A stretch of DNA of 64,000 bases from Patescibacteria group bacterium. Its GTDB lineage: Bacteria; Patescibacteriota; CPR2; UBA1875; CAIMLA01. The stretch lies in assembly GCA_041738615.1 (NCBI GenBank), contig JBGSPL010000001.1, positions 226,164 to 290,163 on the forward strand, written 5' to 3'. Positions 1 to 63,687 of this stretch are shown here, piece by piece. The notes beneath the pieces are model-generated. The model saw nothing but the letters and a program-made list of their open reading frames with translations. It was not told the origin of the DNA and did no database searches. The translations under genes and the position numbers were made by a program. Within the stretch, counting starts at the first letter, position 1, and every line of letters begins with the position of its first letter.

Positions 1-1055
1 ACCGTAAAGTTACCCAGATCATCTACCGGCATATAGAAATCAATTCCATGTTTTCTGGCTACGATATTATCTTCTACACCAAAAGCAGGGGCTGTATGCA
101 CTATACCTGTACCGTCGACAGTAGTTACGTGATCGCCATCTATGACCACAAATGCCTTTTTGGGGTTCCTGTAAAAGTTAAATACGGGCTTGTAGGCTAT
201 CCCGACAAGGTCTTTACCAATGAATTTATCAGTAACTCTAAAATCACCGAGTTCAGTTGCGTAGGACTCAAGTCTTTCGCTCGCGAGAATAAATTTACCA
301 CCCCCAGTTTCCACCTTCACATATTCAATCTTTGGTCCTACGGAAAGAGCAAGATTGCCAGGTAGAGTCCAAGGAGTTGTTGTCCAGGCAAGAAAATATG
401 TACTGGGTTCATCTACAAGCTCAAATTTGACCGTAACAGCCTTGTCGCGCTTGTCTTTGTAGCCTTGACCGACTTCAAAGTTTGATAGAGGGGTAGCACA
501 GCGTGGACAATATGGCATTACTTTATGTCCCTCATACGCTAAGTCCTTCTTGTGAAGCTCAGAAAAGGCCCACCAGACGCTTTCCATAAACTCTGGGTTC
601 ATTGTGAGGTACGCGTTTTCCATATCAATCCAGCGGCCAGTACGGGCAACTATCTTCTGCCACTCCTCAGCATAGTTAAGCACCTTAGAACGGCACAATT
701 CATTGAATTTATCGATACCCAGCTCTTCGACTTGATCCTTAGTTTTGATATCGAGTTCTTGCTCAACAATGTTTTCGATAGGTAGTCCGTGGGTGTCCCA
801 GCCCCAGATGCGTTCTACTCGGTAACCTTGCATCGATTTATAACGAGGTATCACGTCTTTAATTGTACCTGCAAGTAGATGTCCATAGTGAGGAAGTCCG
901 GTTGCAAAAGGAGGGCCATCATAAAAGGAGAACGATTTATCTTCGGATTTCTCAGAAACAGATTTCTCGAAAATATGATTATCGTTCCAGTATTTCAGGT
1001 TTGCGGTTTCTAGCTTTGGAAAATTTTGTTTCGGGTCTACCCTCTTCATTGCCAT
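1..1055 (-). CDS. ileS: isoleucyl-tRNA synthetase, N-terminal portion (gene continues beyond window start)
   Basis: Reverse-strand translation from ATG at 1055 gives MAMKRVDPKQNFPKLETANLKYWNDN...GPPFATGLPHYGHLL...WDTHGLPIE and continues with class I aaRS (IleRS) sequence to position 1. No stop falls inside the window, so it is absent from the ORF track. Confidence 0.85.
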   Translation of the reverse strand, partial: MAMKRVDPKQNFPKLETANLKYWNDNHIFEKSVSEKSEDKSFSFYDGPPFATGLPHYGHLLAGTIKDVIPRYKSMQGYRVERIWGWDTHGLPIENIVEQELDIKTKDQVEELGIDKFNELCRSKVLNYAEEWQKIVARTGRWIDMENAYLTMNPEFMESVWWAFSELHKKDLAYEGHKVMPYCPRCATPLSNFEVGQGYKDKRDKAVTVKFELVDEPSTYFLAWTTTPWTLPGNLALSVGPKIEYVKVETGGGKFILASERLESYATELGDFRVTDKFIGKDLVGIAYKPVFNFYRNPKKAFVVIDGDHVTTVDGTGIVHTAPAFGVEDNIVARKHGIDFYMPVDDLGNFT

Positions 1056-1066
1056 ACCTACTCCTA

Positions 1067-1262
1067 TACAACAAAAACCACACTGCCTCAGGTGCCCTCT
1101 CGGGCGGTACCAACCTGATTCTGTGTGGATACTTACTTACTGACATTACGCTGTCACGGCGCCGAGGTCTATTAGGCCGAAGCTGTTCTTCTCGGGGCTC
1201 GCGGGTGATAACCGCTCATTCGCCTTGTAGGTATTTTAGTACAAAAATCTATAAATTACTAC
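1067..1262 (-). promoter_or_regulatory. putative T-box riboswitch leader of ileS (Ile specifier AUC)
   Basis: Minus-strand leader contains a T-box-like sequence AAUCAGGUUGGUACCGCCCG (rc of 1101-1120). A short hairpin GCGG-UUAUCAC-CCGC (rc of 1201-1215) presents AUC followed by A. A hairpin CCACACAG...CAGUGUGG followed by UUUUUGUUG (rc of 1067-1128) lies just upstream of the SD UAGGAGUAGGU and the AUG. Confidence 0.5.
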
Positions 1263-1287: not shown

Positions 1288-2604
1288 ATGGAAACCAAGC
1301 TAAGTAAAAACGAAACCTACGAAGTTGTAATTGAAAAAATCGTTCCTGAGGGAAAGTCACTTGCTCACATCGAAGGCAAGGTTATTTTTGTTAATGGTGG
1401 CTTCCCTGGGGAAAGGGTCACTGTACAAATCTACAAGAACAAGAAGGGCTACTCAGAAGCCAGACTTGTTGAAATTTTAGAAGCCTCCAAGATACGAATT
1501 AAACCCCAAGAGGAGCACTATTTGATATGTTCTCCTTGGCAGGCAATCCCCTACGAGCAGCAAATCGTTTTCAAAAAAGAGATTCTGGATGAAGCCTTTA
1601 TGGCAAATGCAGGAACCAAATTAAAGTTAGACGAATTCTATGAGTCAAAAGAAGAGTATGGATACCGAACCAAGTTAGAGTTTAGCTTTACCGAAAACGC
1701 CGACGGTAAAATTGCACTCGCCTTTCACAAACGCGGAGTCAACAACGAGTACGAAATCATCGAAGGCTGCGAACTAGGCTCTGAAAGGATGAACCTCGCA
1801 GCCCAGAAGATTACAGCACTTCTGAATACCACTCCAGGAGTTGTAGCCAAGGGGCTAAAGAGCTTGGTGATTCGCGAGAGCAAAACTACCGGGAAAATCA
1901 TTGCCGTCCTCTACTATAAATTTAAAGAGTTTGAGATAGGAATTAGACTAGCCGACCTTGGTGGCTCGGTGGATAGCTTATTTATTGCCTACTCTACAAT
2001 CAAGTCTCCAATGTCTGTTATCACTGAGCTCAAACACTCAGAAGGTGAGGAATACCTTGAGGAAAAGGTTCTTACGGCTTCTATTCGTTACCCATACGAC
2101 GGTTTCTTCCAAAATAACCTGCCGGTATTCGAGAAAGCTCTAGAAGAAATTCGTAATGCCTCTTACGAGTGCAAGAAAATCGTCGAGATCTACAGTGGGA
2201 CGGGTTCCATCGGGTTCAATCTAGCCGACATGGCAGAGGAACTGGTAGGTATAGAAATTGTACCTTCTGCGGTGCGTTACGCGGGTGTAAACAAGGACCT
2301 AAACAAAATAACCAACTATTCGGAGATCGAGTTACCCGACCACAAGATTCAAACTGAGCATCTCGCAGGCACTGATATTTTGATTTTGGACCCGCCAAGA
2401 GCCGGGGTGCACCCCAAGACGCTCAGGCATATTCTTGAAGCTAAACCAAAACGGATTATCTACCTTTCTTGCAATCCAGTGACCCAAGCTCGAGACTTCA
2501 AAGAGCTAAAAGAACTTTACAATCTTTCTAGGGTTTGCGCTTTCGACTTTTACCCAAATACCCTACATATGGAGTCTCTGGTTATTTTAGACATCAAGGA
2601 TTGA
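1288..2604 (+). CDS. 23S rRNA (uracil-5-)-methyltransferase, RumA/RlmD family (TRAM plus SAM-MTase)
   Basis: 438 aa. N-terminal TRAM-like region (KSLAHIEGKVIFVNGGFPGERV). C-terminal SAM methyltransferase motifs (ILILDPPRAGVHPKTL, IIYLSCNPVTQARD). Confidence 0.75.
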   Translation: METKLSKNETYEVVIEKIVPEGKSLAHIEGKVIFVNGGFPGERVTVQIYKNKKGYSEARLVEILEASKIRIKPQEEHYLICSPWQAIPYEQQIVFKKEILDEAFMANAGTKLKLDEFYESKEEYGYRTKLEFSFTENADGKIALAFHKRGVNNEYEIIEGCELGSERMNLAAQKITALLNTTPGVVAKGLKSLVIRESKTTGKIIAVLYYKFKEFEIGIRLADLGGSVDSLFIAYSTIKSPMSVITELKHSEGEEYLEEKVLTASIRYPYDGFFQNNLPVFEKALEEIRNASYECKKIVEIYSGTGSIGFNLADMAEELVGIEIVPSAVRYAGVNKDLNKITNYSEIELPDHKIQTEHLAGTDILILDPPRAGVHPKTLRHILEAKPKRIIYLSCNPVTQARDFKELKELYNLSRVCAFDFYPNTLHMESLVILDIKD

Positions 2605-38778: not shown

Positions 38779-38788
38779 TTGATCATAA

Positions 38789-38904
<116 letters not shown>

Positions 38905-39030: not shown

Positions 39031-42076
<3,046 letters not shown>

Positions 42077-63459: not shown

Positions 63460-63611
63460 GGGCGCCGTGCCCTATTTGCTGAAATCCTTAAGTCAGTTTT
63501 GTCGGAAAACCAATGCGATACCCATACCAATACTTAGTAGATACGCTTACTTCGCAGATTCTCTCCGCCGAGACAAAAAAAATATCCCAGTCAAAAGACT
63601 AAGATATTTTT

Positions 63612-63687
63612 TGGTGGACCCGACAGGACTCGAACCTGCCACCTCCTCAGTGCAAATGAGGCGCTCTACCAGATGAGCTACGGGCCC
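63612..63687 (-). tRNA. tRNA-Ala (anticodon UGC), CCA encoded
   Basis: rc GGGCCCGTAGCTCATCTGGTAGAGCGCCTCATTTGCACTGAGGAGGTGGCAGGTTCGAGTCCTGTCGGGTCCACCA. Cloverleaf with G3:U70 and a TGC anticodon loop. Confidence 0.9.

Follow-up and report, generated by a model that had tools for sequence, protein, structure and literature searches.

The leader of the isoleucine--tRNA ligase gene ileS in a Patescibacteria group bacterium is almost certainly a genuine but divergent T-box, as judged from the sequence and its relatives. It lies on the minus strand at 1225-1073, directly upstream of ileS, in the 64,000-nucleotide (nt) stretch analysed here, called the window (contig JBGSPL010000001.1, positions 226,164 to 290,163). 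The assignment follows from comparative evidence: related leaders, covariation of the helices, matches to a covariance model of the family (R1), and alignments of members to the Rfam T-box model RF00230. The leader is predicted to sense tRNA-Ile and to control ileS, probably by attenuation of transcription. It is placed between ileS and a divergent rlmD-like gene (1288-2604, plus strand). The regulated gene (1-1065, minus strand) has a Shine-Dalgarno sequence (SD) AGGAG at 1065-1061 and an ATG at 1055-1053, and its open reading frame (ORF) exits the window at the left end. The gap between the run of uridines (U-run, 1077-1073) and the SD is 7 nt. The product is identified as isoleucine--tRNA ligase (IleRS) by a profile match to TIGR00392 (E=1.1e-127 over the 351 residues in the window).

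Comparative identification of the leader

Relatives by protein similarity were collected by scanning the N-terminus of IleRS against one genome per species. The nearest IleRS loci are from metagenome-assembled genomes labelled Saccharibacteria or Patescibacteria (60-81% amino acid identity) and from CPR2 or Howlettbacteria (66%). The same leader architecture is present directly upstream of ileS in L001, L002, L004, L007, L009 and L012, and one ORF further upstream in L003 and L011. The intervening ORF has 161 amino acids and no assigned function in L003, and 135 amino acids and a MazG-like appearance by eye in L011 (L003:779-1498; L011:936-1504). The leaders of these two loci score 97 and 76 bits with R1, respectively, and the U-run of L003 has decayed to UAUUUGUUAUUU. 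A scan of metagenomes with a 25-base pattern, covering the Stem I loop and the T-box, yielded 107 stretches with 105 unique leaders. The pattern was derived from the window type and the metagenomic members share these 25 bases by construction, so that part of the score of the window with R1 is built in. The IleRS proteins of the metagenomic members have their best match in loci from Patescibacteria (candidate phyla radiation, CPR), at only 45-50% identity, and because of this low identity their taxon is only tentative.

In an alignment of 84 sequences the seven drawn helices are paired in 94.7% of cells, and shifting the 3' partners by 1-3 columns lowers this figure to 32-47%. Covariation scores 0.52 (≤0.13 with shifted partners), both sides change in 23 of the 32 pairs, and compensatory pairs occur in every helix. 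R1 was built from 76 metagenomic members, with the window and its close relatives excluded. It matches the window at 1225-1088 on the minus strand with 101 bits (E=1.3e-27) along the full length of the model, which is the sole match in the 64 kb. Elsewhere, Patescibacteria ileS leaders score 76-102 bits, CPR2 leaders 34-53 bits, and Firmicutes ileS T-boxes at most 32 bits.

The original prediction, made from the letters of the window, proposed a T-box with an Ile specifier on ileS and named a scan with RF00230 as a check. The proposal is borne out by the recurrence of the architecture in the protein-similarity relatives, by the covarying helices, and by the alignment of RF00230 to members of the family. 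The scan itself was negative: the window gave no match to RF00230 at the gathering threshold (93 bits), nor at E≤10 on a 451-nt stretch, and no other Rfam family matches the leader. The RF00230 model aligns end-to-end to the members L111 and L091 (41-46 bits, E ~1e-6). In these alignments the GA motif, the Stem II S-turn, Stem IIA/B, Stem III and the T-box are matched, and 78 Stem I positions are reduced to 7 nt. The CPR2 loci L010 and L008 score 35 bits with RF00230, and the relatives overall 23-46 bits, far under the gathering score of 93. The missing match reflects the divergence of the family and is no argument against T-box identity. The family is invisible at the curated threshold of Rfam and is missed by current annotation.

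That the leader goes undetected by RF00230 would also suit a decayed T-box, a constitutive attenuator or hairpin no longer responsive to tRNA, as would the lack of a Stem I platform, of a Stem III hairpin and of a canonical competition between terminator and antiterminator. Such a relic is very improbable. The AUC with its following A, the bulge UGGU, the S-turn and every helix have been retained through compensatory changes, both where IleRS is only 60-80% identical and in ~100 metagenomic leaders. This pattern of conservation points to purifying selection on a working tRNA-binding fold.

Decoding half of the leader

The base of Stem I is a GA motif resembling a kink-turn (K-turn) at 1224-1196, minus strand. 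Its C-stem pairs G1224 G1223 C1222 with G1198 C1197 C1196, and the tandem pairs are G1217.A1199 and A1216.G1200. The C-stem columns (2-4/28-30) covary among AU, UA, GC and CG types, with 85% of cells paired in the 84-sequence alignment. RF00230 matches this segment to its GA motif in relatives; the bulge has 4 nt, not 3. Stem I (1215-1201) is ultrashort, with 4 bp of GCGG (1215-1212) and CCGC (1204-1201) closing the 7-nt loop UUAUCAC (1211-1205) that the original prediction had described. The Ile specifier AUC (1209-1207) and the conserved purine A1206 are in this terminal loop, which is kept as NWAUCAN in the relatives identified by protein similarity. At columns 12/24, Stem I has a U-A pair in 51 sequences, a C-G pair in 30 and a U-G pair in 3; C.A was never found, though the search pattern permitted it. 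The AG bulge, distal loop and tRNA-elbow platform of a long Stem I are absent from the window, where the 4 bp and the 7-nt loop make up the whole stem.

Stem II (1195-1162, minus strand) has a lower helix of CCGAG (1195-1191) and CUCGG (1166-1162), and a GC-UUCG-GC cap at 1183-1176. The lower helix shows compensatory changes at 5 of 5 pairs and has 95% of cells paired. S-turn-like strands are read in the sequence as AAGAA (1190-1186) and AAUAGA (1173-1168). The corresponding GAAGAA...AGUAGA is conserved family-wide, and RF00230 matches it to the S-turn of its Stem II in relatives. The Stem IIA/B pseudoknot (1161-1141, minus strand) consists of IIA, CGC (1161-1159) with GCG (1151-1149), and of IIB, in which the loop UGACA (1156-1152) pairs with UGUCA (1145-1141). 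Stem IIA covaries, with 94% of cells paired. Support for IIB is moderate only: 4 or more contiguous pairs form in 48% of the cognate combinations of loop and tail and in 19% of the non-cognate ones, and shuffling sequence by sequence gave no significant result (median p 0.55).

Translational ileS T-boxes with an ultrashort Stem I are attributed to Mycobacterium tuberculosis, M. smegmatis and Nocardia farcinica (Sherwood, Grundy & Henkin 2015, as cited in PMC7583486). In this actinobacterial class, Stem II and the pseudoknot make up for the absent elbow platform (PMC7583486). The special ileS model of TBDB was applied to Actinobacteria only. The likeness to this class that the original prediction saw holds for the decoding half and fails for the output half. 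Shared features are the regulated gene ileS, an AUC plus purine in the terminal loop of a platform-less short Stem I, the basal K-turn, the S-turn Stem II, the IIA/B pseudoknot, and a UGGU-bearing 7-nt bulge between helices A1 and A2. The window differs in its Patescibacteria (CPR) host and in having a predicted terminator of unusual topology, a hairpin with a U-run before the SD, without an SD sequestrator helix. It also lacks a Stem III hairpin, and its presumed competing helix arises from the Stem III region, not from the 3' strands of A1/A2.

Discriminator and closing helix

The T-box discriminator core (1118-1088, minus strand) comprises A1, UCAGGU (1118-1113) with ACCUGA (1093-1088), and A2, GCCC (1105-1102) with GGGC (1097-1094), which has GAGA as its capping loop. 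The core sequence GGUUGGUACCGCC, which the original prediction had recognized on the ileS leader, is at 1115-1103. The 7-nt T-box bulge UGGUACC (1112-1106) contains the UGGU predicted to pair with the tRNA 3' ACCA. Among the 84 leaders, pairing reaches 100% in A1 and 96% in A2, and four pairs covary in each of the two helices. The A1/A2 element alone folds at -13.2 kcal/mol.

The Stem III position (1135-1119, minus strand) holds the purine string UAAGUAU (1135-1129), CCACAC (1128-1123) and AGAA (1122-1119). Folding predicts no Stem III hairpin in the window; the purine flanks (UAAGUA ... AGAA) are present and only CCACAC lies between them. In the covariance-model alignment of the window, 14 Stem III positions are replaced by 5 nt. 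CCACAC forms the 5' side of the closing (terminator) helix, whose 3' strand is at 1087-1078. The segment between A1' and the U-run reads GGCA-GUGUGG, in which GUGUGG (1083-1078) pairs with CCACAC and C1085 pairs with G1121 in both the minimum free energy (MFE) and the centroid folds. The complete hairpin 1128-1078 encloses A1/A2 and has a folding energy of -25.2 kcal/mol. Directly 3' of the closing helix is the U5 tract UUUUU (UUUUUGUUGU) at 1077-1073, so that the hairpin and U-run before the SD claimed in the original prediction are in place, with the SD 7 nt on. The closing helix of the window type has 5-8 bp and is maintained by compensatory changes among relatives. Its versions are CCACAC/GUGUGG in the window and UCCAC/GUGGA, CCACGU/ACGUGG, AUCCCA-GC/GCUGGGAU and GCACCA/UGGUGU in relatives. 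The folding z-score of the whole leader is unremarkable (-0.95), and thermodynamics alone therefore gives no support.

A long-range pairing of 8 bp in the MFE fold (1234-1227/1058-1051) joins AUACCUAC, just 5' of the K-turn, to its perfect complement GUAGGUAU, which bridges the interval from the SD to the start codon. The pairing is absent in L001, a relative with 81% identity, and probably due to chance, the expectation for such a pairing being ~0.3 per 200 nt by a rough estimate. A weak AU/GU-rich stem is possible within 1041-1077 (minus strand), formed by the U-run and the next bases (UUUUUGUUGUAUA) with UAUGGCAAUGAAGA. The SD would be in the loop of this stem and both in-frame AUGs in the stem itself.

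Output half and terminator designs

The SD (1065-1061) is outside every conserved helix. Inspection by eye and folding revealed no anti-SD conserved among relatives, whether in the T-box, in the A1' strand or in the 5' leader. Candidates for SD sequestration occur in single leaders only (UCUCCUA/UAGGAGA in L004, CCUCC/GGAGG in L012) and none is conserved. In 95 of the 100 leaders analysed, a run of 4-8 uridines comes after the last (closing) helix or overlaps its end. The distance from the U-run to the start is tight in the family, with a median of 19 nt, and some members have their SD 40-150 nt past the U-run. A clean hairpin, AUAUCUUAGUC/GACUGGGAUAU, with a U8 tract comes after a lone tRNA-Ala(UGC) gene with encoded CCA (63570-63687, minus strand), which indicates that this genome uses intrinsic terminators. 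The unsequestered SD, the U-runs, the distant SDs and the terminators elsewhere in the genome together point to transcription attenuation, which is the likely level of control.

In a translational T-box of the actinobacterial kind, a long hairpin through the U-rich tract would block the ribosome landing site as long as uncharged tRNA is absent, and tRNA binding would open the region. An ultrashort Stem I has so far been tied to translational T-boxes (PMC7583486), the short SD spacing in the window and the narrow U-run-to-start distance of the family would fit, and in many members the U-run is predicted to be paired with the A-rich 5' strand of Stem III. Control at this level is nonetheless unlikely. 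Pairing over the SD or the start codon is not conserved, and the 8-bp start-region pairing of the window is itself not conserved in L001. The U-run is kept in ~100 divergent leaders, which is unexpected for a purely translational switch, and some members have textbook terminators (L093, L008/L010) or the distant SDs mentioned above.

Three terminator designs are found in the family. In design (i), the canonical one, the A1' strand pairs downstream; it is present in L093, L134, L165, L174, the CPR2 leaders L008 and L010, and the "AAGUCCC" subgroup. The textbook terminator of L093 reads UUCCAAUG-GCAA-CAUUGGAA-U6 and shares the A1' strand. An ultrashort Stem I is combined with a textbook terminator in L008 (1163-1400) and L010 (1137-1400), as well as in L093, L134, L165 and L174, and from their sequences these leaders look like transcriptional T-boxes without a tRNA-elbow platform. 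They share with the window the ultrashort Stem I with its AUC loop, the K-turn, the S-turn Stem II, Stem IIA/B and the T-box bulge. They differ from it in having a Stem III hairpin and a textbook terminator with A1' as the 5' strand. Design (ii) is that of the majority, with a Stem III hairpin in 73 of 95 leaders (mean -6.5 kcal/mol). Downstream, a segment rich in purines pairs with the loop and the 3' strand of Stem III (mean -14.2 kcal/mol), and this invading pairing reuses 76% of the bases of the Stem III 3' strand and leaves A1/A2 intact. Cognate 5' and 3' segments pair at -13.5 kcal/mol, compared with -8.2 kcal/mol for non-cognate ones, and a median of 4% of the non-cognates do equally well. 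Design (iii) is the window type, without a Stem III hairpin, in which a helix joins the strand at the Stem III position to the segment before the U-run.

The canonical competition, in which the 5' strand of the terminator is the 3' strand of A1/A2 and the two are mutually exclusive, is not what the window folds into; its stable hairpin contains A1/A2. No strong terminator competes with A1/A2. The only alternative of the canonical type, CACCUG-AGG-CAG(U)GUG, reaches only -6 kcal/mol, and its register is not conserved. The original prediction had offered to be judged by a significant RF00230 hit and by a mutually exclusive terminator/antiterminator pairing, and, taken literally, both tests went against it. 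These tests were too narrow, and the reading as a T-box is not wrong.

Canonical transcriptional T-boxes (RF00230; tyrS and glyQS of Bacillus subtilis) share with the window the T-box sequence AAUCAGGUUGGUACCGCC, A1, the 7-nt bulge, A2, Stem II and Stem IIA/B. The presumed output, a hairpin and U-run before an aminoacyl-tRNA synthetase gene, is also shared. In contrast, ~78 Stem I positions with the AG bulge, distal loop and platform are replaced by a 7-nt loop in the window and its family. The window has no RF00230 match and members reach 35-46 bits against a gathering score of 93. The predicted terminator of the window keeps A1/A2 and takes the Stem III region as its 5' strand. Examples of the canonical type were found in the Clostridia ileS leaders L032 and L037 (90-101 bits).

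The strands CCACAC and GUGUGG could instead be a split Stem III of the tRNA-bound ON state, its 3' strand displaced to behind the antiterminator and the helix stacked under A1, with the weak CACCUG/CAG(U)GUG hairpin before the U-run as the OFF state. CCACAC does take the exact place of Stem III, with the conserved purine flanks on either side, and coaxial stacking of Stem III is described for the ileS T-box of M. tuberculosis (PMC12647780). A canonical-type alternative that overlaps GUGUGG exists in the window, and in the "AAGUCCC" subgroup the G-rich 3' segment can pair with either the upstream strand or A1'. This arrangement is improbable, even slightly more so than translational control. 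The OFF hairpin would have -6 kcal/mol against -25 kcal/mol for the hairpin with the closing helix, and its register is lost in L002, L004, L007 and L009. A stable ON-state helix abutting the U-run would itself terminate transcription, and the equivalent helix destroys Stem III in 73 relatives, so that it cannot be the ON state there.

Proposed switch

In the attenuation reading, the anticodon GAU of tRNA-Ile would pair with the specifier AUC, and Stem II and the pseudoknot would buttress the complex and offset the absent elbow platform. The 3' ACCA of an uncharged tRNA would pair with the UGGU of the bulge, and the purine flanks UAAGUA...AGAA would dock on that duplex. The docked flanks would hold CCACAC unpaired, so that no closing helix could form when GUGUGG leaves the polymerase, and transcription would read through into ileS. 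With charged tRNA or no tRNA, the flanks would be undocked, and CCACAC/GUGUGG would extend A1/A2 into the -25 kcal/mol hairpin at the U-run and cause termination. In most relatives the equivalent logic would rest on invasion of a genuine Stem III hairpin by the downstream segment. Uncharged tRNA is proposed to lock the Stem III region because the 5' strand of the terminator is that same region, and the proposed reading is coherent across designs (ii) and (iii). In published T-box structures, the purine flanks and the Stem III region are needed to bind the tRNA 3' end, and aminoacylation blocks this engagement (PMC7583486, PMC12647780). That the competition is specifically between the Stem III region and the terminator, and not between A1/A2 and the terminator, has a little less than an even chance of being correct.

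Several points weigh against this switch. A search of the window and of 40 related loci found no tRNA-Ile gene, which leaves the complementarity to the actual tRNA a prediction. Bacterial tRNA-Ile generally carries A73, which would pair with a U at position N of UGGN. The established view is that uncharged tRNA acts by stabilising helix A1, and this canonical coupling cannot apply as such because A1 belongs to the predicted terminator. According to reviews, transcriptional T-boxes need the platform of a long Stem I, whereas translational control is what accompanies an ultrashort one (PMC7583486). The tRNA 3' end reportedly cannot be bound without Stem III (PMC7583486), and the window is without a Stem III hairpin. 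The tight spacing of U-run and start codon (median 19 nt) also fits an effect on ribosome access.

Promoter, downstream genes and other features of the window

A candidate -10 hexamer, TAAAAT, is read in the sequence at 1238-1233 (minus strand), and predicts that transcription starts near 1226, on the leader structure's first base. A simple sigma-70 scan of 950-1450 found no promoter and no full -35/-10 pair; only this -10-like hexamer is proposed. A TAnAAT hexamer ends 15-18 nt 5' of GAG(Y)GG in 85 of the 105 family leaders, 17 of which also have an upstream TGn. The spacing of 16 nt in the window is the modal distance of the family. This regular spacing implies that the transcripts begin at the first base of the T-box fold.

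About 20 of the ~100 family leaders with an Ile specifier do not precede ileS; they precede genes for GNAT acetyltransferases (~180 amino acids, PF00583). Metagenomic leaders of this kind include L098, L082, L102, L107, L111, L114, L133, L137, L143, L151 and L152. Other downstream genes encode NUDIX (L088, L101, L175), MBL-fold (L099), ArsC-like (L146) and DUF4145 (L160) proteins and a fusion of GDSL and GNAT (L186).

The window also contains a 23S rRNA gene (39031-42074, minus strand) of 3044 nt, compared with 2925 positions in the model, with a large insertion after about model position 312. A 5S rRNA gene (38788-38903, minus strand) follows it. No 16S rRNA gene and no tRNA-Ile/tRNA-Ala spacer were seen adjoining these genes in the window.

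Implications

Descriptions of T-boxes present them as regulators in Gram-positive bacteria and in a small number of further phyla. The genomes of CPR bacteria are tiny, and these organisms cannot synthesize amino acids and are regarded as having little regulation. A full-text literature search found no paper linking T-boxes to CPR, Patescibacteria, Saccharibacteria or TM7; subscription-only papers were outside its scope, and a prior description is possible. It is tentatively suggested that CPR bacteria carry an undescribed, widespread class of Ile T-boxes that combines a platform-less Stem I with termination. Its terminator would invade Stem III and leave A1/A2 intact, the window would be a subtype without Stem III, and the class would also control non-synthetase genes, notably small GNATs. 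As part of the same tentative suggestion, the tRNA would decide the outcome through Stem III and docking of the purine string, not through helix A1.

A large T-box family in CPR would widen the phylogenetic range of these regulators, and CPR bacteria would appear to monitor the charging of tRNA-Ile. If the proposed wiring is true, it would separate the holding of the tRNA 3' end (A1/A2) from the genetic decision (Stem III region), two functions that are fused in known T-boxes. Transcriptional T-boxes could then work without a tRNA-elbow platform, and perhaps without Stem III. The Ile leaders before GNAT acetyltransferases hint at a regulon dependent on tRNA charging that extends beyond the synthetase.

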